Source: a virus
Taxonomy: Duplodnaviria > Heunggongvirae > Uroviricota > Caudoviricetes
DNA length: 42,047 nucleotides
Direction: 5' to 3' (one strand)
Virus record (IMG/VR): IMGVR_UViG_2660238591_000003
The position numbers and the translations under genes are program-made. This document shows positions 1 through 42,047 of the stretch, piece after piece. The stretch's first letter is position 1; every line of letters starts with the position of its first letter. Below the pieces are notes generated by a model, which saw nothing but the letters and a program-made list of their open reading frames with translations, had not been told where the DNA came from and searched no databases.

Positions 1-549
1 TCAGCTAGCTGGAAACTTTTTATACAGAGTTGAGAGCCCTACTCCATACGTTTTTGATACGCTTTGTCGTGATTCACCGGTTGCCATCCGCTCCCCCATT
101 TCCCGCCATTGCTCATCCGTGAACTTAGGCCTGCGACCACCAACTCGCCCTTTTGCCCTGGCTACGGCCAGCCCTGCTAAGGTACGTTCGCTATTAAGAT
201 CAGATTCATATTGTGCTGCGGAAAGGATGTTACGAAAGTTATAGCGGCCGCTGGCTGTTTTGAGATCCACGCCATCGGTAATACTGCGGAAGTTGATACC
301 CTTTTCCTGTAACTGCTGGAACATCAACAGCGCATGCAGAACGTTGCGGCCTATCCTGTCCAGCTTCCAGACCACCAGTTCATCCCCCGGCTGCATAGTG
401 GCGATCAGCCGTTTTAGAACCGGCCGATTCGATTTCCTCCCGCTGGCATGCTCTTCAAAAATTTTCTCACAACCCGCTGACTTGAGCGCCGTTAGTTGCA
501 ATTCAGTGTCCTGGTGGTTTGTTGATACTCGGGCATAACCGTAAATCAT
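1..549 (-). CDS. DNA invertase, small serine recombinase (Hin/Gin/Pin/Cin family)
   Basis: ATG at 547-549 (the track ORF 1..708 carries a non-ATG upstream extension). 182 aa beginning MIYGYARVSTNHQDTELQ with the catalytic-Ser motif, GRRPKF and a C-terminal HTH ending STLYKK. Lies beside inverted crossover sites. Confidence 0.9.
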   Translation of the reverse strand: MIYGYARVSTNHQDTELQLTALKSAGCEKIFEEHASGRKSNRPVLKRLIATMQPGDELVVWKLDRIGRNVLHALLMFQQLQEKGINFRSITDGVDLKTASGRYNFRNILSAAQYESDLNSERTLAGLAVARAKGRVGGRRPKFTDEQWREMGERMATGESRQSVSKTYGVGLSTLYKKFPAS

Positions 550-601
550 GGGATTTCTCCTGTTATGAAAACAGGAGAAACGGCGAAGCATCACCAGATT
601 T

Positions 602-1132
602 TTGATGGTTATAAAAAAGGTTGGTTTGGGAGAAGGCTCAGCATTACCCGTTGGCGTACCTGTTCCGTGGCCTTCAGCCACACCGCCGACAGGCTGGCTG
701 AAATGCAACGGTGCCGCTTTTTCTGCTGAAGAATACCCGGAACTGGCAAAGGCTTACCCGACAAATAAATTGCCTGATTTACGTGGTGAGTTTATTCGTG
801 GCTGGGATGACGGGCGTGGAGTGGATAGCGGTCGTACTTTATTAACGAATCAAGAGCATGCAGTAATTTCTCATAATCATGGAATACCTACAAAAGTGGG
901 GTCAGTTACTAATATCCCGTATGGAATAGAACAGGTTATATCTGATGAAACCATTTTTTCATCAGCAAAAACAGTTGGTGTGGATTACTGGTCTAACAGT
1001 GAAAGAGTTTTTACTTATACCTCTGGTGGAAGAAATGGTGCTGAATCAGTGAGTTCACCTGATGCCTCCTCTTTAATTAAAGAAACCAGACCACGGAACC
1101 TAGCATTTGCGTATATCGTGAGGGCTGCATAA
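602..1132 (+). CDS. alternative tail-fibre C-terminal variable segment (silent in this orientation; would fuse to the constant part after inversion)
   Basis: Track ORF. GLGE junction codons at 621-635. Sequence LPDLRGEFIRGWDDGRGVDSGR is a typical phage fibre C-terminal domain. No independent promoter or RBS context; lies immediately inside the crossover site. Confidence 0.7.
   Translation: MMVIKKVGLGEGSALPVGVPVPWPSATPPTGWLKCNGAAFSAEEYPELAKAYPTNKLPDLRGEFIRGWDDGRGVDSGRTLLTNQEHAVISHNHGIPTKVGSVTNIPYGIEQVISDETIFSSAKTVGVDYWSNSERVFTYTSGGRNGAESVSSPDASSLIKETRPRNLAFAYIVRAA
607..634. repeat. invertase crossover site (hix/gix-like), left copy
   Basis: Reverse complement TTCTCCCAAACCAACCTTTTTTATAACC resembles hixL TTCTTGAAAACCAAGGTTTTTGATAA. 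A 15-bp core at 621-635 is repeated inverted at 2592-2606. Confidence 0.7.
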
Positions 1133-1734
1133 TGGTGAAAGCAAAATTAAACAGTGCGTTTATTGCCACCGTGGCAGGTGAAATCACTGTGTACAACTAC
1201 CGGGGCGACACCCGCGAATACATATCCTCATCGGTTGAGTATCTGCCTGTGGGGGTGGGTATTCCTGCCAATTCCTGTACCGATGCGCCCGGCACACATA
1301 AAGCTGGTTATGCAATCTGCCGTTCTGCAGATTTTAACTCATGGGAATATGTGCCAGACCATCGCGGTGAAACGGTATATAGCACTGAAACAGGAGAATC
1401 AAAAGAAATCACAGCTCCGGGTGATTACTCTGAAAATACAACTACTATCGCCCCGTTAACGCCATTCGATAAATGGGATGGTGAGAAATGGGTGACCGAT
1501 ACTGAGGCACAGCATAGCGCCGCAGTAGACGTGGCAGAAGCACAGCGCCAGTCGCTGATTGATGCTGCTATGGCTTCCATCAGTCTGATTCAGCTGAAAT
1601 TGCAGGCCGGGCGGCAACTGACGCAAGCAGAAATCACTCGCCTTAACGCTGTGCTGGATTACATTGACACGGTGACGGCAACAGATACCAGCACCGCGCC
1701 GGATGTCATCTGGCCTGAACTGCCGGAGGCGTAG
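1132..1734 (+). CDS. tail fibre assembly protein (Tfa, alternative copy)
   Basis: 200 aa. ATG overlaps the stop of the preceding segment (ATAATG). C-terminus LDYIDTVTATDTSTAPDVIWPELP is the conserved Tfa motif. Confidence 0.8.
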   Translation: MVKAKLNSAFIATVAGEITVYNYRGDTREYISSSVEYLPVGVGIPANSCTDAPGTHKAGYAICRSADFNSWEYVPDHRGETVYSTETGESKEITAPGDYSENTTTIAPLTPFDKWDGEKWVTDTEAQHSAAVDVAEAQRQSLIDAAMASISLIQLKLQAGRQLTQAEITRLNAVLDYIDTVTATDTSTAPDVIWPELPEA

Positions 1735-2149
1735 GCCATTCAATATCTGGAGCACTGGAGGTATCAACCAGTTCCAGTGCGTCCAGATAATCCAGCCACA
1801 AATTATATTGCGCCAGTTCCTCACTTTTCAGACGACCAATCGCCGCTTTGCCAGGCCACTGATGAGTATTGATGTAGGTATTGACTTCAGAAACCAAAGA
1901 TATTTTTTTCATTTCAGCCGTCAACACCTCATCCTCTTTTGAAGGGGGTGGGGAATTAATCCATACTGGCCGTCCTGAACTGTCAGCGCCAATTTCTTTC
2001 CCTTCTGGATGCAGCCCAAGAAATTGCTCATATGTTTCTCTGGTAATTTCAATAACATCATCAGGAAGCGTTCCCGCATCCTCATATTCTGGAAACAATT
2101 CTTGCAGATAAAAACTTTTACTTCCGGGTGAAAAGAATACTGAGTTCAT
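1706..2149 (-). CDS. tail fibre assembly protein (Tfa, expressed copy)
   Basis: 147 aa. C-terminus LDYLDALELVDTSSAPDIEWPTPP is a Tfa motif. Convergent with the other Tfa and overlaps its 3' end. Confidence 0.8.
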   Translation of the reverse strand: MNSVFFSPGSKSFYLQELFPEYEDAGTLPDDVIEITRETYEQFLGLHPEGKEIGADSSGRPVWINSPPPSKEDEVLTAEMKKISLVSEVNTYINTHQWPGKAAIGRLKSEELAQYNLWLDYLDALELVDTSSAPDIEWPTPPAVQAR

Positions 2150-2151
2150 TC

Positions 2152-2874
2152 TTACCGTCCAATGATTAATGCTGAGACGCTGGTATCTGAAGGAAAGGCT
2201 GCATTCAGTGGTTTGTCGACTTTGAACACAATCGTATTATTCCCCCTGACAGCGGCAAAAGAACAAACCGCAGTCGCGTATGAACCTGTAATATTACTGG
2301 ATACACCACCATAAGCTGTTGTTGATACCAGAGGGATAACGCCCAGCACCTTATTAGGAAATACAAAGGGCAATGTGGCTGTGGCAATATAAGACTTATT
2401 AGAACCTGTAATGGCATAAGCATTATCAGTCATTCCATTCATCGCCACCGGGCCGCTTATACTTACAGTAACCATCTGAATGATTAGCCCGTCAGGTTGA
2501 CGAATCACAAAATTTCCATTGCCACCAGTAACCGTCCAGAAAGACATATCAGGGATTTGGTTTTCCCCGTTGCCCACATTCCGTTTTGCCGCTTCTCCCA
2601 AACCAAGGTTTGTGGTAATCGCTGTCGCCAGCTTTGCCACCAGTCCATCAACGTCACCATCATCGAGCGCGTCCAGTTCGGCGTTCGCGATAAACTGCCC
2701 CAGTACAGCCGCCATCGTCGACGGTTGGCGCAGCGCTTTACTGACCTGTGCGCTGGATGCTTTACCCGAGGAGAATCCTTTCTTCAGTGCGGTTAGCGTC
2801 TCCCATTCCTCCTGCGAGGTAACATTTGCATTAGCATCTGTCGCAAACGCTTTAAAATCATTAGTTCCAGCCAT
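2152..2874 (-). CDS. tail fibre protein (constant N-terminus 2607-2874 joined to variable C-terminus inside the invertible segment)
   Basis: ATG at 2872-2874 overlaps the TAA of the upstream gene (TAATG), with GGGGGAGA upstream. Contains the GLGE crossover codons. Gly/Thr/Asn-rich fibre-like sequence. Confidence 0.8.
   Translation of the reverse strand: MAGTNDFKAFATDANANVTSQEEWETLTALKKGFSSGKASSAQVSKALRQPSTMAAVLGQFIANAELDALDDGDVDGLVAKLATAITTNLGLGEAAKRNVGNGENQIPDMSFWTVTGGNGNFVIRQPDGLIIQMVTVSISGPVAMNGMTDNAYAITGSNKSYIATATLPFVFPNKVLGVIPLVSTTAYGGVSSNITGSYATAVCSFAAVRGNNTIVFKVDKPLNAAFPSDTSVSALIIGR
2591..2618. repeat. invertase crossover site (hix/gix-like), right copy
   Basis: TTCTCCCAAACCAAGGTTTGTGGTAA on the + strand, inverted relative to the left copy. 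Confidence 0.7.
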
Positions 2875-3554
2875 TAAAGTAATCTCCCCCATGCGCCGTC
2901 ATCAAAACCGGCGATGTATTCGTTATCCATGTCAAATCCAAAGAATTTTGTTCCTTCGGACGGTGTTTCAACCGAAGGCATTTCAACATCACCGGCCCAG
3001 ACGCCAGCGGCTTTAACGGTGAGATAGCCCTGTTTGATAGCGGCGATCAGTTCGAGAGACACATCAGAAATATCAGTCTCGGGAAATACCCAGACCGATA
3101 TCGTCATGTCCTGATTGTCGACGATCTGCATCTTCAGGCCCGAACCCACTGTGGCAGTGTCAAGAATGTCCGGAAGCGAGTCGTTACGCCCGTCCCAGTT
3201 GTTAATAGCGATTTTTGCTTTCAGAATAGTGCGATAGGTATCATCGCTAAGCGTCGTATAGCCGGAGTCAGGATCATATGGCCCCTGCCATACGCCCTGG
3301 TCATATCCGAGCCCCTCCGTGTCCCAACTGAAATAAACGCCACTAATGGGCTGGCTGACTATACGGCTACGTCCAATCCAGAGTCCGAGAATATCGAGTT
3401 GCACGCCAACAGCCGTATCAATGTCAAACGCACTCACCAGGCCCCTTGTGGCTGACGTGATATCAATCAGGGGACGGGTACTAAGATCGATGTGATCGAG
3501 GTATTTCGGCTTAGTGGCGTGGTAGTTAGTGATTAGATCCGTGTACCTACTCAT
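2874..3554 (-). CDS. tail/baseplate protein upstream of fibre (Mu gp48-like position)
   Basis: 226 aa track ORF. Translationally coupled to the baseplate J gene and the fibre gene. Function assigned by position only. Confidence 0.55.
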   Translation of the reverse strand: MSRYTDLITNYHATKPKYLDHIDLSTRPLIDITSATRGLVSAFDIDTAVGVQLDILGLWIGRSRIVSQPISGVYFSWDTEGLGYDQGVWQGPYDPDSGYTTLSDDTYRTILKAKIAINNWDGRNDSLPDILDTATVGSGLKMQIVDNQDMTISVWVFPETDISDVSLELIAAIKQGYLTVKAAGVWAGDVEMPSVETPSEGTKFFGFDMDNEYIAGFDDGAWGRLL

Positions 3555-4750
3555 GACGTCACCGTGATAACGATGTTTGCCGGTTTACATGAAGCTGATT
3601 CGTCGTAGGCTATGGTTATGTTTGCCGATGCTACGGATCCTGCTGATTTACCGATGAGTAATTCCTGGATGTCGTAATAACGCGCGCTACCGCCGCTGAC
3701 CACCCCGAGGTTGGCAGGTGAATAAATGCGGCTCAGCAGCACCGAATCACCGATCGTCAGGTCGTTGATGTAATCCGCAACGGCCTGCTGAATCTCCTTA
3801 CCTATTTGTGATGTGTAACCCGCGAAAGCTTTCAGCGTTATATGTCCATAAATAGGAACATCCGTTGACCGGGAGAAGCGAATCACATGGGGATTACCGT
3901 ATTTATCCGGCACCGTGACGGCTGTCGCACCATACGTTGACACCCCCTGCCCCTTATTGCCCCGGATGGCCTGGGCGATTTCAGTCAGATCGCCGCCATC
4001 CACGATGGCAGAGATAGAGTGTGGCGGCAGCCCATTACTGTCGGTCGTGCCGGTATCATTCTCGTAGAGCTTGTGACGTGTAACCCCTGCAACGTTCACT
4101 ATCGCGCCGTCCACCCCTTCAAACGGCGTGATGGAGGGTAGCGCGACACTCTGCCCCTGCCGGATGCGCAGCTCTGCGTCGGTTTCCGCCGGGGATCCGA
4201 CGGTGGCCGCCGCGGGGTTAGTTACCGAAGTCCAGCCGCGGGTCGGTGTGTTAATGGTCGTGACCGTTCCGGACAGCGCGGCCACTGCGCCGCTATTTGA
4301 GCAGGTGGCAGTGACCGTCGCCGTCCCGTCTAAACCAATTACCACGGAAGCCGGCATGCTCCAGACCAGGCCATTCTTATCCCTGACGGAGCCATTCGAA
4401 ATGGTCGTACCGGCCGCGCCGGTAAGCAGCAAATCAACCGTTGAGTTGGTAGCCGTTCTCCTTTTAATACCGTTTATTTTCACGTTCTTGCTCAGCCCTG
4501 CGCCATAAGCGGTGGCAGGCGAAAAGCTGTTGTAAACAGCAATGGCCGTGTTGTTAGCATCGTGAATAGCCAGGGCCACCAGCGCCACCATCTGCCCGTC
4601 TTTGCTGTCAGGATCCAGATAAGCATCGCTGCCATATATCTGCTTAAAGTAGTTGGTCAGGGTGTCCAGTATTGTCTGGTAATCAGGCGCGCTGATCCCC
4701 TCAGCGGTTACCGTTGCCGATAAGCCGAGCGTGTCCAAATTGAGGGCCAT
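3551..4750 (-). CDS. baseplate J-like protein (Mu gp47 / P2 gpJ family)
   Basis: 399 aa. Position between the gp46-like gene and the fibre genes. Composition typical of baseplate J family members. Confidence 0.75.
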   Translation of the reverse strand: MALNLDTLGLSATVTAEGISAPDYQTILDTLTNYFKQIYGSDAYLDPDSKDGQMVALVALAIHDANNTAIAVYNSFSPATAYGAGLSKNVKINGIKRRTATNSTVDLLLTGAAGTTISNGSVRDKNGLVWSMPASVVIGLDGTATVTATCSNSGAVAALSGTVTTINTPTRGWTSVTNPAAATVGSPAETDAELRIRQGQSVALPSITPFEGVDGAIVNVAGVTRHKLYENDTGTTDSNGLPPHSISAIVDGGDLTEIAQAIRGNKGQGVSTYGATAVTVPDKYGNPHVIRFSRSTDVPIYGHITLKAFAGYTSQIGKEIQQAVADYINDLTIGDSVLLSRIYSPANLGVVSGGSARYYDIQELLIGKSAGSVASANITIAYDESASCKPANIVITVTS

Positions 4751-5978: not shown

Positions 5979-6329
5979 ATGCCAAAATCAGAAACAACCA
6001 TAAAATTTACTCCAGCTATTTGGAAAGAGTTACTTCCTGTAATCCAGGATAACATACCCGCTAATGACTATGTAGTAAGTAAAAGAGTCAGAACGGGTGA
6101 TTCTCCTGGCGCTATTGGCACAATTCTCGAAATATCTATTACCGTTATCACATCATCACCAGCTTGTATCGCCATTGCATCGATAGCGAGAAAATGGTTA
6201 CAGACCAGATCATCAAAAAAAATAACGGTAACCACTGAAAAAGGTACGATCGAAATACAAAATCTGACATCAAAGGAGCTTTCAGAAGTACTGGAGCAGT
6301 ACAAAATTATAAGTTTTAAAGACGAGTAA
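5979..6329 (+). CDS. hypothetical membrane protein, AT-rich moron (opposite strand to the late operon)
   Basis: 116 aa. Hydrophobic helix AIGTILEISITVITSSPACIAIASIA. Stop is followed by a terminator hairpin. AT-rich by eye. Confidence 0.55.
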   Translation: MPKSETTIKFTPAIWKELLPVIQDNIPANDYVVSKRVRTGDSPGAIGTILEISITVITSSPACIAIASIARKWLQTRSSKKITVTTEKGTIEIQNLTSKELSEVLEQYKIISFKDE

Positions 6330-36303: not shown

Positions 36304-39213
36304 ATGGAATTTTTCCATCTGATAAAAGCCAGTCAGAAGTCTGGCAAGAAAGATGCAGTGATTTGGTTCACTGCGAAAAGTGTAGCGCGCGCCAATCTCC
36401 AACTCGATGTGGCACTGGAAGAAGCCGGAATTGAAGAAACTGGCCGCGGTAAAGATTATGCCAAACCAATCCGCACCGATTTCCCGGTATATGACGACCT
36501 GCCGGAAGAAGGCGCAGTGGATTACACCTGGTGCAAACGCTACGAACTGCAGAACGATGACCGCACCTGGATGCCAAAAGTCACAGCTGAAAACTCTGAC
36601 GAGAAAACGGCTCAGACCGTTGATAGTCACATAACTACTGAGTCAACGCTGCCAGAAACCGCTGGCATCACGCTGGACGAACACGACGACGACTCAACCC
36701 TCTACCCGGTAGTGCAGATGCCGTTTCGTAAGCAACTGCTTTCCCAGTTCACCGCCGACGAACTGCGCCACCACGTAACCCGCGAAGAGTACGAAGCTAT
36801 CGGCGCGCTGGAGATGGACACTGATAACAGTTACGTCCAGAACTTGCTGTTAGCTGCTGAGAACTGCCCGGACGTGAAGGGTTACGACACCAAAGACCTG
36901 TGGCGCTACACCGATGCCATTCGCAAAGTGTTCAGCCAGGACAAGCGTCACGAACTCGCGCTGGTACTCCGTTTCACCAGAATGTGGGCGGCGACTGATT
37001 ACATTGACCGTGGCATCCTGGCGCGTGAATGGGCTGCCGGTAATCACATCAGTAGTGTTCAGCGTACTGATTCCGGAACCAATGCCAACGGCGGTTACGT
37101 CACTGACCGTGGACCTGATGCATACCATACCCTTGACACTCTCGATTTAGAGATTGCATGTGCCCTTCTGCCTATGGACTTCAACCACTTCGAGATCCCG
37201 GGCAGCATTCTTCGTCGCGCTAAAGAAATCGTGACCAAAAAAGAAGAACCGTGGAAATCATGGAGCAGCATTCTGCGCAATCAACCCGGCGTTCTTGGCG
37301 TTAACCGCACAGCTATTTTTAACCTGATACGTATCGCGCCGGAAAATATTCATCTAACTCCTGTCGCTCACCTGGAGTTTGTTAACCGGACCATGACTGC
37401 TGCGTTTAATGCTGCTGTTGAGTTATTGCCATTGCATGAAGCTGAGCCCGCAACACAGGAAATTCCCCAACCTGAAAGTAAGGAGTCTCCACGCAAACCC
37501 TTCTGCACTCACGAAGAGAACCTGCAACGCGTACGTGAAGAAGAAGCACGCCGCCGCGCAGAGGAAGCGACAGCACAACCACATAAAGCCGAACAAGAAC
37601 TGGTTAAAAATGTCGGCAACGGAATATTCGATGTTACGGCTTTACTGCAGAACTCAGCAACTCATGGCACGAAACAGGCTACGGAAACCACCAGCAATGT
37701 GCAGGTTCAAGAAACTGTCAGTGATGAAAAAAATGTTGGTAATGAAATGCAGTCAGGCGAAAGCAGTCTGGAAACTGGTGAAGAGTCACATCCCGGCCAG
37801 CAGGCCGATGTAAACCAAAATACGGAATCTGTCGCTCAAAATAGCGATTCTGTAAACCAGACTGAACCAGTTTTGGCACACGTCGAGCCAGAGGCGCAAT
37901 CTGACGAACAAGCTGTTTTTTACCCCGATTACTTCGAGCCTGGGCGCTATGAAGGTCTGCCGAACGAGGTTTACCACGCTGCCAACGGCATCAGTTCCAC
38001 CCAGGTAAAAGATGCGCGCGTTTCGCTGATGTACTTCAATGCGCGCCACGTTGAGAAAACCATCGTCAAAGAGCGCTCCTCAGTGCTGGACATGGGAAAC
38101 CTGGTACATGCGCTGGCGTTGCAGCCAGAACAGCTCGATGAAGAATTTAGCGTTGAACCCGTAATTCCGGAAGGTGCATTTACCACCACGGCAACGATCC
38201 GCGCGTTTATTGATGAGTACAACGCCAGCCTGCCAGCGCAACTGAGCGCAGACGATATCAAAGCTTTGCTGGATGAATACAACGCCACCCTGCCAGCGCT
38301 GGTGCCGCTGGGCGCTAGCCTGGATGAAACGGCGCAGAACTATATGGCGCTGCCAGCTGAATTCCAACGTATCGATGCAGATCAGAAGAAGACAGCAACA
38401 GCAATGAAGGCGTGCATCAAAGAGTACAACGCCACCCTGCCAGCGCAGATTAAAACCAGCGGCAGCCGCGACGCACTACTCGAACAACTTGCGATTATCA
38501 ATCCTGACCTGGTCGCGCAGGAAGCTCAGAAGCTGCAACCGCTGAAAGTCTCTGGCACGAAGGCCGATCTGATTCAGGCCGTGAAGGCAGTCAAACCAGA
38601 TGCAGTGTTCGCCGACGAGCTGCTCGATGCGTGGCGCAACAACCCGGAAGGGAAAGTGCTGGTTACCCACCAGCAACTTGCCACCGCGCAGGCAATTCAG
38701 TCAGCACTGCTCTCGCACCCGACCGCAGGCATGCTGCTAACCCACCCGAGCCGCGCCGTTGAGGTGAGCTACTTTGGCTTTGACGAGGAGACGGGACTGG
38801 AAGTTCGTGTGCGCCCTGACCTTGAGATCGACCTAGACGGCGTGCGTATCGGTGCTGACCTGAAAACCATCAGCATGTGGAATGTTAAGCAGGAAAGCCT
38901 GCGCGCCAGGCTACACCGGGAAATTATTGAACGTGATTATCACCTGAGCGCGGCTATGTACTGCGAAACCGCAGCGCTGGATCAGTTCTTCTGGATTTTC
39001 GTCAACAAAGACGAGAACTACCACTGGATCGCCATCATCGAGGCATCCGCTGAACTACTGGAGCTGGGTATGCTCGAGTACCGCAAAGCGATGCGCAATA
39101 TCGCAACCGGATTCGACACAGGTGAATGGCCAGCGCCAATCACTGCTGACTACACCGACGAACTGAACGACTTCGACCTGCGCCGCCTTGAAGCGCTGCG
39201 TACTCAGGCATAA
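36304..39213 (+). CDS. recE: RecE-like exonuclease (C-terminal PD-(D/E)xK nuclease domain with long N-terminal extension)
   Basis: ATG at 36304 with AAGAGGA upstream. C-terminal motif VRPDLEIDLDGVRIGADLKT. Immediately followed by a RecT-like gene. Internal triplicated EYNA(S/T)LPA repeat. Confidence 0.7.
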   Translation: MEFFHLIKASQKSGKKDAVIWFTAKSVARANLQLDVALEEAGIEETGRGKDYAKPIRTDFPVYDDLPEEGAVDYTWCKRYELQNDDRTWMPKVTAENSDEKTAQTVDSHITTESTLPETAGITLDEHDDDSTLYPVVQMPFRKQLLSQFTADELRHHVTREEYEAIGALEMDTDNSYVQNLLLAAENCPDVKGYDTKDLWRYTDAIRKVFSQDKRHELALVLRFTRMWAATDYIDRGILAREWAAGNHISSVQRTDSGTNANGGYVTDRGPDAYHTLDTLDLEIACALLPMDFNHFEIPGSILRRAKEIVTKKEEPWKSWSSILRNQPGVLGVNRTAIFNLIRIAPENIHLTPVAHLEFVNRTMTAAFNAAVELLPLHEAEPATQEIPQPESKESPRKPFCTHEENLQRVREEEARRRAEEATAQPHKAEQELVKNVGNGIFDVTALLQNSATHGTKQATETTSNVQVQETVSDEKNVGNEMQSGESSLETGEESHPGQQADVNQNTESVAQNSDSVNQTEPVLAHVEPEAQSDEQAVFYPDYFEPGRYEGLPNEVYHAANGISSTQVKDARVSLMYFNARHVEKTIVKERSSVLDMGNLVHALALQPEQLDEEFSVEPVIPEGAFTTTATIRAFIDEYNASLPAQLSADDIKALLDEYNATLPALVPLGASLDETAQNYMALPAEFQRIDADQKKTATAMKACIKEYNATLPAQIKTSGSRDALLEQLAIINPDLVAQEAQKLQPLKVSGTKADLIQAVKAVKPDAVFADELLDAWRNNPEGKVLVTHQQLATAQAIQSALLSHPTAGMLLTHPSRAVEVSYFGFDEETGLEVRVRPDLEIDLDGVRIGADLKTISMWNVKQESLRARLHREIIERDYHLSAAMYCETAALDQFFWIFVNKDENYHWIAIIEASAELLELGMLEYRKAMRNIATGFDTGEWPAPITADYTDELNDFDLRRLEALRTQA

Positions 39214-39218
39214 GGGGA

Positions 39219-40337
39219 ATGATGATGGAAAACACGAATATCGTAACCGCTGAACAGCAGACTCCAAACACGATCTCAGCCAGCAATGCCATTTTCAACG
39301 TGCAGGCTTTAACCCAGCTTCAGTCTGTCGCCGGGTTGATGGCACAGGCAGCCGTAACGGTGCCTGAGCACCTCCGCGGCAATCCGGCAGACTGCATGGC
39401 CATCATCATGCAGGCGATGCAGTGGGGTATGAACCCTTACGCCGTGGCGCAAAAGACGCACCTGGTTAACGGTGTCCTGGGATACGAAGCGCAACTGGTT
39501 AATGCGGTGATCTCCAGCTCAAACGCCATCGTTGGCCGCTTTCACTATGAGTACGAGGGCGACTGGTCGAAATGTGCCAGCAGCCGCGAGATAACCGTTA
39601 AAAAGCCTGCGAAAGGTGGCGGGACGTACGACAAGAAAGAAATGGTACGCGGTTGGGAAAGTGCTGATGAACAAGGACTGTCGGTACGGGTAGGTGCCGT
39701 TATTCGCGGTGAAAGTGATATCACCTGGGGAGAGCCTGTTTTCCTCTCCAGCGTAATCACACGTAATTCTCCACTTTGGGTATCAAACCCGAAACAGCAG
39801 ATCGCTTATCTGGCACTCAAATACTGGGCGCGCCTGTATTGCCCTGCAGTTGTTCTTGGTGTGTACACCCCTGATGAGATTGAACAGCGCACAGAAAAAG
39901 AGATCAACCCAACGCCGCAACGCGTTAGCCTGGCTGATATCTCAGGTGACACCGTCACAACCACGCAAAGCGCACAGGAATCGTCGGTAAATGTCGACTC
40001 TCTTGCCGATGATTTCCGCGAACGCATCGAATCTGCTCAGGACGTGGATAGCGCCAAATCGCTGCGTGCCGACATTGAAACGGCGAAAGCTACGCTGGGA
40101 TCCGCACTATTCACCGAGCTGAAAAACAAAGCCGTAAAGCGTTATTACCTAGTGGATGCACGCAACAAGGTTGAGGAGGCTATTAAATCCCTGCCCCAGC
40201 CCGACGAGCCGCATGCATCCGAACGGTTCGCTGAAGCCGAGCGCATGCTTGCATCTTCAAAGCGTCACTTAGGCGATGAACTGCACGATCAATTCAGCAT
40301 CACCCTGGCGGATATGAAACCGGAATACGTGGCCTGA
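39219..40337 (+). CDS. recT: RecT/Red-beta family single-strand annealing protein
   Basis: 372 aa. Segment MQAMQWGMNPYAVAQKTHLVNGVLGYEAQ parallels the Red-beta/RecT core. Position directly after the exonuclease gene. Confidence 0.7.
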   Translation: MMMENTNIVTAEQQTPNTISASNAIFNVQALTQLQSVAGLMAQAAVTVPEHLRGNPADCMAIIMQAMQWGMNPYAVAQKTHLVNGVLGYEAQLVNAVISSSNAIVGRFHYEYEGDWSKCASSREITVKKPAKGGGTYDKKEMVRGWESADEQGLSVRVGAVIRGESDITWGEPVFLSSVITRNSPLWVSNPKQQIAYLALKYWARLYCPAVVLGVYTPDEIEQRTEKEINPTPQRVSLADISGDTVTTTQSAQESSVNVDSLADDFRERIESAQDVDSAKSLRADIETAKATLGSALFTELKNKAVKRYYLVDARNKVEEAIKSLPQPDEPHASERFAEAERMLASSKRHLGDELHDQFSITLADMKPEYVA

Positions 40338-40375
40338 CGAGACCGGGAGGGGTAACCCTCCCTCAAGGAGATTAT

Positions 40376-40618
40376 ATGCGACTGATCAATCGAGGAAGTA
40401 AGCAATCACCTTTAGCTCGCCAAGCATGCGACATCGCGCTGGCAGCTCACTTGCAAACATATGGCGACTATGGGCGAAGCAAGATGAAAGAGACTTATAC
40501 GGTGAAGGTTGAAGGCGTGAAAGTCTGGGTGGAGGTGGTGAACCGAAAGGCGAGCTACGTGGCCACAGCGATGACCGGCATGCGCCGTCTCCGCTCCCTG
40601 CCCGGGCAGGTTGGTTGA
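40376..40618 (+). CDS. hypothetical small protein (between recT and xis)
   Basis: 80 aa; AAGGAG RBS. Confidence 0.5.
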   Translation: MRLINRGSKQSPLARQACDIALAAHLQTYGDYGRSKMKETYTVKVEGVKVWVEVVNRKASYVATAMTGMRRLRSLPGQVG

Positions 40619-40659
40619 AAAAGATTTTGAATGGCCCGAACGGGCAACTGGAGAGAGCT

Positions 40660-40857
40660 ATGGATGATATTTTGGTAACGTCAGACCTGACCAGTCGCTA
40701 CAAAATTTCACGCAAAACCCTTTGGTCATGGCAAAGTGCAGACACAATGCCTCGGGGCTTCGTATGCCCGTTCCCACCCCCTGACTGGCCCGGCAACCCT
40801 AACCGCTGGCGCTCTGAGTCAATCAAAGAGTGGGAGGATAAAAAGAAGATAAATTAA
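40660..40857 (+). CDS. xis: excisionase-like DNA-binding protein
   Basis: 65 aa beginning [26 protein letters not shown]; GGAGAGAG RBS. Convergent with and overlapping the integrase 3' end. Confidence 0.7.
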
Positions 40858-42047
40858 CTGAAGGGCTCTCCGATGATCTCTTCAAGATGGCTCTGCCAAA
40901 CGCGGAGCCAGTGTTTCTGATCATCGATATAGTCATGAAGGTTGTAATGCGCCATAACCCCCACCATCTGATGCCCGAGCAGCTTTTCAATTACGTGCGG
41001 CGGGCAACCTAACTCAGAGAGATTTGTGGCTATCGTCCGCCTCATATCATGAAGCGACCACTCTGCCATACCTGTTCCATTCCAAATAGAACGGGCGTAA
41101 TTGGATGCCACAGGTGAATGAACGGGCGAATCTTTGATCCCGCCATCAATTTTACGTTGTGAAGTCACCAGGTGATTGGTGTTTATTTTCTTGAGGTGAT
41201 TTCTGACCAGGTTAACGGCGGCGTCTGAGAGTCCCCTTCTAATATGTACCCGAGTTTTATAACTGCCCGCAGGCACGACCCACTCATTATCATCCAATCG
41301 AAACCATGATCTCTCACTAAGTCGAATCTCAGCCGTACGGCATCCGGTAAGCATAATAAATTTCACCAGGAAAACGGACTCTATCGACATATGGCTTTTC
41401 AACCACTGATAGATTTTGCGCAGATCGTCATCGTCCATCCTGCGAGTTCTCTTTTTAGGCTTTTGCCCGACATCAGATGGCAGTAATCCCTCGAGTGGGT
41501 TTGAGGCGATCACACTTCTGTTAACGCAGAACCTAAAGGCCCGTTTGCACAGCGAAAGCATGTAATGAGCCATCACCCTGCTTTCTATAGAATCGAAGAC
41601 GTTGATCCAGTGCATTTTCGCTGTGTTATCGACTTTGACATTCTTCATCGGTTCGGCGATATGTTTCTCAAACACCTGGCGATAGTAATCGACTTTAACT
41701 AGCCCGTTAGCGATACAGTGCCTTTCAATCCAGTAATTGAACGCTTCGGCAACGGACATCGCTTCCTGTCGGGTCTGCTTATCCAGCTTCACCTGCTCTC
41801 GCGGATCCAGTCCCTCAGTTAACCAGTTTCTGAATTGTTGGCGACGCTCTCTTGCCTGGGTGATACTCATTGCAGGATAATCACCAACATTGAGTTTTAC
41901 CGCTTTACCGGCCCAGCGATACCGATAGAAAAATGATATTTTTCCGGCCTGGCTGATTCTGGCGTTGAGCCCGTGCGAATCAGAAATAATCTCGATATCA
42001 TCTCTTTTCTTGCCGAGCGCCTTCCTGAGCTTTGTGTCGGTGATCAT
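40854..42047 (-). CDS. int: tyrosine integrase (P4-type)
   Basis: 397 aa; ATG at the window edge (42045-42047). C-terminal catalytic region with R...HxxR...Y spacing ([25 protein letters not shown]). Confidence 0.9.

Follow-up and report, generated by a model that had tools for sequence, protein, structure and literature searches.

What are two facing tail-fibre tips, each followed by its own chaperone gene, doing beside a recombinase gene at the left end of a temperate phage genome? The question is raised by positions 1 to 3,554 of IMG/VR virus record IMGVR_UViG_2660238591_000003, a member of the Caudoviricetes whose whole stretch of 42,047 nt was analysed and is called the window below. An original prediction had placed a complete invertible host-range switch here, built on the plan of the Mu G, P1 C and e14 systems. 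Our answer is close to it: the tail operon of a complete temperate Escherichia coli myovirus of ~42 kb very probably ends in a working switch based on site-specific inversion, whose anatomy, preserved reading frame and occurrence in both orientations of identical DNA can be read directly from the genomes described here.

The invertible segment and its recombination sites

The segment between the recombination sites measures 1,986 bp (621-2606) and is bounded by an exact 15-bp inverted repeat, CTTCTCCCAAACCAA, at 621-635 (minus strand) and 2592-2606 (plus strand). With up to two mismatches allowed, this repeat has no other match in the 42,047 bases (0.09 expected by chance), and none of 100 shuffled sequences gave two copies; it extends to a repeat of 27 nt that is 81% complementary. 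A segment of roughly 2 kb with these boundaries had been predicted, and the repeats are both exact and unique in the window. When 621-2606 is inverted in silico the reading frame is kept and the fibre changes from 240 to 259 aa, the silent C-terminus becoming residues 91-259 of the longer protein. The two fibres are identical over residues 1-94 and divergent thereafter, so that one state combines a gp53-like tip with a Tfa chaperone of 147 aa (240-aa fibre) and the other a collar-type tip with a Tfa of 200 aa (259-aa fibre). The features of the region are as follows.

549->1, minus strand: DNA invertase gene, 182 aa; ATG at 547-549, and its stop codon opens the window
553..581, minus strand: 12-bp stem-loop in the invertase leader, pairing with the AGGAG ribosome-binding site 5 nt upstream of the ATG
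609..634, no strand: invertase-proximal 26-bp site, TTATAAAAAAGG-TT-GGTTTGGGAGAA; core at 621-622; 60 bp upstream of the invertase ATG
623..1132, plus strand: silent alternative fibre C-terminus, collar type, StfE-like (Pfam Collar, E 1.2e-15), without a start codon of its own
1132..1734, plus strand: Tfa for the collar-type tip, 200 aa, TfaE-like (Pfam Caudo_TAP, E 5.5e-32), silent here
1706..2149, minus strand: Tfa for the gp53-like tip, 147 aa (Pfam Caudo_TAP, E 2.7e-28), expressed here
2152..2604, minus strand: variable C-terminal part of the expressed fibre (residues 91-240, 150 codons), from the open reading frame
2874->2152, minus strand: expressed fibre gene, 240 aa
2593..2618, no strand: distal 26-bp site, inside the fibre gene, TTCTCCCAAACC-AA-GGTTTGTGGTAA; core at 2605-2606
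2605..2874, minus strand: constant N-terminal part of the fibre, codons 1-90, outside the segment
2874..3554, minus strand: DUF2612 (baseplate wedge) gene (Pfam DUF2612, E 2.8e-46)

On the map of open reading frames (ORFs), the constant 5' part of the fibre gene lies outside the segment, and the two alternative 3' parts lie inside it and face each other, each followed by a Tfa chaperone gene of its own, both of the Caudo_TAP family. This is the arrangement that had been predicted, with an expressed fibre at 2152..2874 and a silent C-terminus ending at 1132, and all of its coordinates proved right. The tip expressed in the window has a weak match to Pfam Gp53-like_C (E 8.7e-4, below the curated cut-off), and its relatives are named 'gp53-like domain-containing protein' in RefSeq; a search of NCBIfam assigned neither the invertase nor the fibre parts to a specific family. 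The ATG of the fibre gene overlaps the stop codon of the DUF2612 gene (TAATG), and the fibre is therefore the end of the baseplate operon.

Written as half-site, core and half-site (12+2+12), the recombination sites are two imperfect dyads of 26 bp in inverted arrangement with identical 2-bp cores (TT and AA), and a degenerate 26-bp pattern finds just these two places, 609-634 and 2593-2618, in the window. Third or cryptic sites, as in the Min-like multiple inversion of p15B, were also sought with mismatches allowed, and there are none within the window. The inner half-sites are the same at both sites, and the outer half-sites differ. Among the related loci, which we label with L numbers, the proximal site is identical in L001-L003 and differs by one base in L004, in either orientation of the segment, and the distal site is identical in all four. 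In most other genera examined, the homologous proximal site lies 67-110 bp upstream of the invertase gene (169 bp in L011), and its outer half-site, CCTTTT..., is specific to the subfamily to which the invertase belongs. The proximal site is degenerate in L010 (AAACC -> AATTG) and L019 (AAACC -> AAATG), where the switches may be frozen, and in L013 no clear proximal site was seen upstream of the invertase gene.

In the expressed gene the repeat is read as (C)TT-GGT-TTG-GGA-GAA-G, which encodes Leu90-Gly-Leu-Gly-Glu, and in the silent copy as (G)TT-GGT-TTG-GGA-GAA-G, the preceding codon being Val GTT. By analogy with hix and gix, the staggered cut would fall at the 2-bp core (621-622 and 2605-2606), directly 5' of the first Gly codon. 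The core makes up the final two positions of the codon that precedes GLGE, so GLGE itself corresponds to the inner half-site and would not be the crossover point. The earlier placement of the crossover in these codons can thus be retained in so far as the repeats cover them; the exchange itself would occur just 5' of them. The hixL site, which we take to be TTCTTGAAAACCAAGGTTTTTGATAA, matches the right site at 20 of 26 positions.

The switch would operate as follows. Dimers of a small serine invertase, whose gene adjoins the segment on the outside and points away from it, would bind the two 26-bp sites and make staggered cuts at the identical AA/TT core, after which one subunit pair would rotate by 180 degrees, followed by religation. 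In this way the constant part would be joined in frame to one of the two tips, always through Leu-Gly-Leu-Gly-Glu, the matching chaperone would simultaneously enter the late transcript, and the virions released from a lysogen population would carry either of two fibre specificities.

Both orientations in public genomes

Public assemblies were queried with the exact DUF2612 protein, and among the matches listed was L026, a contig of the E. coli assembly GCA_001413485.1 at NCBI that carries the locus next to yciI; 16 further similar places were also found. Over 3,600 of 3,600 nt, L026 is 100.000% identical to the sequence flipped in silico. Aligned with the unflipped window, it breaks into three pieces, 1-635, 621-2606 (on the opposite strand) and 2592-3600, which overlap exactly at the 15-bp repeats. 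Its gene order is baseplate gene, 259-aa Collar protein, 200-aa Tfa, 147-aa Tfa (on the other strand), silent fragment and 182-aa invertase, and the 259-aa protein called on it is, residue for residue, the predicted flipped fibre.

Both states are common. The exact 240-aa fibre (WP_244473369.1) is present on 16 public E. coli contigs and the exact 259-aa fibre (WP_057688093.1) on 32, and the outcome that the original prediction had named as adverse, that only one orientation is ever observed, did not come about. Across 5,426 complete E. coli genomes, the window-type junction occurs in 7 and the flipped junction in 4; COL60J has the orientation of the window and PSJ-22 and TOK-001 the flipped one, all three with the same invertase (WP_000639140.1) at the same chromosomal site beside yciI. 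The occurrence of identical DNA in both orientations indicates that the switch has been active on a very recent timescale, and provides base-exact proof of flipping, from public genomes, for a textbook mechanism. In several public assemblies, contigs end 8-45 codons past the GLGE junction of the fibre (proteins P0125-P0130). Such truncated fibres at contig ends were considered as evidence of mixed orientations and rejected as ambiguous, as multi-copy cassettes would explain the breaks equally well.

The invertase subfamily and its control

In a Pfam search the invertase matches Resolvase (E 3.6e-39) and HTH_7 (E 1.5e-9), as expected of a small serine recombinase with an N-terminal catalytic serine, Ser9 (equivalent to Ser10 of Hin), and a C-terminal helix-turn-helix domain. 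Phe106 (Hin numbering), essential in Hin (PMC4513852), is retained alongside Ser10 and Arg43. Its best relative of solved structure is Gin (3UJ3, E 1.4e-56, vs 4e-25 for gamma-delta resolvase), so that it stands nearer to the invertases than to the resolvases. Protein identity reaches 55% with e14 PinE and 51-52% with the Mu and P1 invertases, and lambdoid phage mEp237 encodes an identical protein, annotated 'DNA invertase'. The gene is intact, its catalytic residues are kept, and it is under strong purifying selection across genera. It belongs to a subfamily that forms an Enterobacterales clade (Escherichia, Citrobacter, Kluyvera, Trabulsiella, Morganella, Erwinia and others), is carried by myovirus, lambdoid and other prophages, and bears the signature NHQDTELQ ... 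GRYNFRNILSAAQYESDLNSERT. That this subfamily might be the Fels-2 Fin invertase was rejected, a phage gene annotated Fin being just 51% identical.

For invertases of the Hin/Gin/Cin/Pin class, the recombinational enhancer comprises a pair of Fis sites, spaced 48 bp apart, within the 5' part of the gene that encodes the enzyme. In the P1 record it is annotated at nt 19-90 of cin, and the homologous stretch of the window is without the key bases of the Fis sites. At the position of Fis site II, G-7 and C+7 are present in four of four canonical genes, and the subfamily has C at -7 in 14 of 14 genes and a variable base at +7; Fis site I is altered at +3 and +4. The Fis-site positions in the subfamily genes are our own derivation. 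A scan for an alternative enhancer, defined as two Fis-like 15-mers 47-49 bp apart, recovers the e14, Mu and P1 sites but is unspecific, since chance pairs are equally frequent (1.4-2.6 per region), and the sole match in the window, at 1600/1647, is meaningless. Along the subfamily gene, a scan of synonymous sites revealed no frozen block of third positions of 60-70 bp, with a mild dip at codons 5-16.

The same divergence is seen in the protein. When 14 members of the subfamily (62-100% identical) were compared with Hin, Gin, Cin, PinE and a P2-like invertase, Ser10 and Arg43 were kept in all 14. Phe106 lies within the block GRYNFRNILSAAQYESDLNSERT, which is invariant in 14 of 14 members and differs from the canonical GRFFFHVMGALAEMERELIVERT, although synonymous sites inside it vary normally. 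The invertase is Gin-like overall, yet does not have the residues that define the Fis-dependent Hin/Gin/Cin/Pin group. At the positions that lock the Hin dimer (105, 109 and 112) the window enzyme has N, I and A, with 14 of 14 members alike; at the Fis-contact positions 151/154/155 it has E, E and R, and at the helix-B patch 47/48/51 K, R and A. These last two sets of positions differ among the 14 members (Asp or Glu at 51 included), whereas Hin, Gin, Cin, PinE and the P2-like invertase all have the same residues there. Gln151, Arg154, Leu155 and the basic residue 51 of Hin are described as uniquely conserved features of the Fis-dependent invertases (PMC3798978), and Phe105, Met109 and Leu112 hold the inactive Hin dimer locked and act as the gate for rotation, the F105N substitution in Hin giving Fis-independent activity (PMC4513852). 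Residue by residue, K51, F105, H107, M109, L112, Q151, R154 and L155 of Hin correspond to A, N, R, I, A, E, E and R in the window enzyme (PMC3798978, PMC4513852).

We tentatively suggest, as a possibility that falls well short of even odds, that the enzymes of this subfamily have no natural need of Fis and the enhancer, or that their control takes another form. In favour of enhancer independence are the Asn at the Phe105 lock position and the lack of the conserved Fis-contact residues, of the basic helix-B patch and of the key Fis-site bases, so that every sequence signature of Fis/enhancer control open to comparison is missing. Enhancer independence, if true, would make the subfamily a natural counterpart of laboratory hyperactive mutants and of interest for genome engineering. 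Activity would then be limited not by an invertasome but by very low expression, through a hairpin that sequesters the ribosome-binding site.

A candidate for such a hairpin is present in the leader of the gene. The 91-nt leader folds with -26.5 kcal/mol (z = -5.64), and none of 200 shuffles was as good. The sequence of the hairpin at 553-581 is kept in the close relatives L008, L009, L010, L017 and L019, as conservation only, with no covariation. It may damp translation of the invertase, which would fit a tight limit on invertase synthesis. A small GC hairpin followed by a T-rich run precedes it, flagged by a scan as terminator-like (596->581); the two elements are conserved in the same five relatives, and are not conserved in more distant ones, in pinE or in gin.

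Related systems, rival readings and cassette exchange

The switch is another instance of the known Mu G, P1 C and e14 P mechanism, an architecture predicted for it from the start and borne out by the in-frame flip, the match to L026 and the identical e14 repeat; the divergent invertase subfamily is the sole part that might repay experiments. The P segment and PinE of e14, a cryptic prophage of E. coli K-12, have the same layout, with a constant part and two facing C-termini, each with a Tfa gene, and the PinE gene, like the window invertase gene, is transcribed away from the segment. The inner half-site of pix, GGTTTGGGAGAA, and the repeat, TTGGTTTGGGAGAAG, are identical to those of the window, and the P segment, whose repeat TTGGTTTGGGAGAAGG is the window repeat, has been inverted experimentally by PinE, PinQ and PinR (PMC12529663). 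The collar-type tip is 92.7% DNA-identical to stfE over 219 nt, and the 200-aa Tfa gene is 88% identical to tfaE. The segments are of similar size (1,986 bp vs 1,797 bp in e14). The two systems differ in their outer half-sites and in the baseplate neighbour, which is DUF2612 in the window and the DUF2313 protein YmfQ in e14. The invertase gene has no DNA-level similarity to pinE, the DNA of the gp53-like tip shows no relationship to that of the variable part of e14 StfP, and the phage is complete in the window whereas e14 is cryptic.

The Mu G/Gin and P1 C/Cin systems resemble the window in having an S gene with constant and variable parts, the chaperones U and U', sites of 26 bp that contain a 2-bp core, and a small serine invertase encoded next to the segment, but their segments, of about 3 kb and 4.2 kb, exceed that of the window, and their constant parts are much longer. 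Hin and hix, the flagellar switch of Salmonella, have the same site architecture and presumably the same catalytic mechanism, but Hin flips a promoter and lies inside its own segment, whereas the window invertase is encoded outside. The same cassette is also found in another type of phage: positions 6001-7991 of L022, a P2-like prophage of E. coli 20A24, are 99.9% identical to window positions 621-2611 (1,991 bp), with homology stopping at the two sites and the junction, ...Y-L-G-L-G-E-G-S..., the same as in the window. In L022, however, the cassette is fused to a P2 H-like fibre of 519 aa and accompanied by a canonical Pin-like invertase, in which Q151/R154/L155 and F105/M109 are kept. The sharing implies a very recent transfer of the cassette between phage types.

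Is the adjacent invertase then the enzyme that turns the segment? It could instead be flipped in trans by the invertase of another prophage (PinE of e14, PinQ, PinR or a P2-like enzyme), with the adjacent gene contributing little or nothing. This would agree with the fact that the e14 P segment has identical inner half-sites and an identical 15-bp repeat, with the inversion of that segment by all three Pin enzymes (PMC12529663), and with the presence of the same cassette beside a canonical Pin-like invertase in L022. It is harder to reconcile with an adjacent gene that is intact, with its catalytic residues kept, under purifying selection and with an alphaE block that is invariant while synonymous sites vary, with the position of the invertase near a proximal site having a subfamily-specific outer half-site in most genera examined (L010, L019 and L013 are exceptions), and with the retention of the identical enzyme by mEp237, an isolated phage; we consider exclusive action in trans improbable. 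The shared repeat nevertheless means that the enzyme of one switch may also flip another switch in the same cell, a cross-talk that would involve PinE, PinQ and PinR. A quite different view is that the switch serves the host in the lysogen, through a chimeric protein resembling a fibre, which would keep other phages from adsorbing. Inversion of the e14 P segment is reported to create StfE2, which blocks adsorption of T2 (PMC12529663), and the silent tip and chaperone of the window are 88-93% DNA-identical to e14 stfE and tfaE. Yet here the fibre gene closes an intact baseplate operon in a prophage that appears to be complete, where repression in the lysogen is expected, and the constant part is unrelated to e14 StfP at DNA level except at the site, so that a role of this kind seems unlikely to us. 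That the locus is a frozen relic, its orientations in the databases reflecting rare ancient events or general (RecA) recombination between the repeats, is very improbable. The undetected enhancer at the canonical place and the degenerate proximal sites of L010 and L019 would fit a relic, but two orientations in DNA that is 100% identical over 3.6 kb require a very recent event, both states are common (16 vs 32 contigs), and both sites and the identical core dinucleotide are intact. A repeat of 15 bp is, moreover, too short for efficient RecA recombination.

The functional switch that we prefer, with the adjacent enzyme as its probable catalyst, also has several points to contend with. No recombinational enhancer was found at the position where cin, gin and pin carry theirs, although one may lie elsewhere, and the switch can accordingly not be called established as 'complete', the word used in the original prediction, no Fis-dependent enhancer having been found at the canonical place. 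A consensus promoter scan of the minus strand near 550-640 gave no promoter-like site for the invertase, and the weak hexamers that might be read there by eye are not put forward as one. Hosts of the species E. coli frequently have PinE, PinQ or PinR as well, and these enzymes act in trans on the repeat found here (PMC12529663); the adjacent enzyme is therefore the probable rather than the certain catalyst. Both orientations are known here from assemblies, and it is from these that we infer switching within a culture. The two states probably differ in host range.

The window is a whole prophage, with the integrase gene at its right end (40854-42047, minus strand) and the invertase gene at its left end, and between them genes for RecE/RecT, terminase, portal, capsid, a DUF3383 sheath-like protein, tape measure and baseplate. 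Positions 37374-42047 and 1-635, which adjoin each other once the phage genome is circular, show ~96% identity to lambdoid phage mEp237 and cover the integrase, RecE/RecT, the attP side and the invertase; in mEp237 the identical invertase lies beside a phi80-type attP. The structural genes of the window are myovirus-like and resemble those of Citrobacter phage Omnitron. Lambdoid ends together with myovirus-type structural genes make the prophage a lambdoid/myovirus mosaic. In mEp237 itself (L023; positions 2917 and 4916) the invertase has a good proximal site, and the sole candidate distal site, inside stf, has the core TC, not AA/TT, with msgA between the two.

The same two sites enclose at least four different cassettes in relatives whose flanks are 99-100% identical to those of the window (L026, L028, L030 and L031), and in these relatives homology to the window ends at the repeats or no more than about 35 bp from them. 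The cassette of L028 has two gp53-like tips, and that of L027 is apparently partly deleted. Different cassettes between near-identical flanks indicate that the sites also act as points of module exchange, and the exchange of modules at tail-fibre genes is already a known pattern. The Leu-Gly-Leu-Gly-Glu junction with its embedded half-site acts as a portable universal adaptor, useful for predicting and engineering phage host range.

Two further genes were noted in the course of these comparisons. In L001 (E. coli COL60J) a second, unrelated small serine recombinase gene (182 aa) lies at 1286-1834, just past yciI and near a DNA adenine methyltransferase gene, adjoining the insertion site of the prophage. 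In the window, an ORF of 116 aa is encoded at 5979-6329 (plus strand), on the opposite strand inside the baseplate operon. Its homologue in COL60J is named 'effector-associated constant component EACC1' in RefSeq (weak PF19953), and the ORF, missing or truncated in the near-identical L027, L028 and L030, looks like a variable moron.

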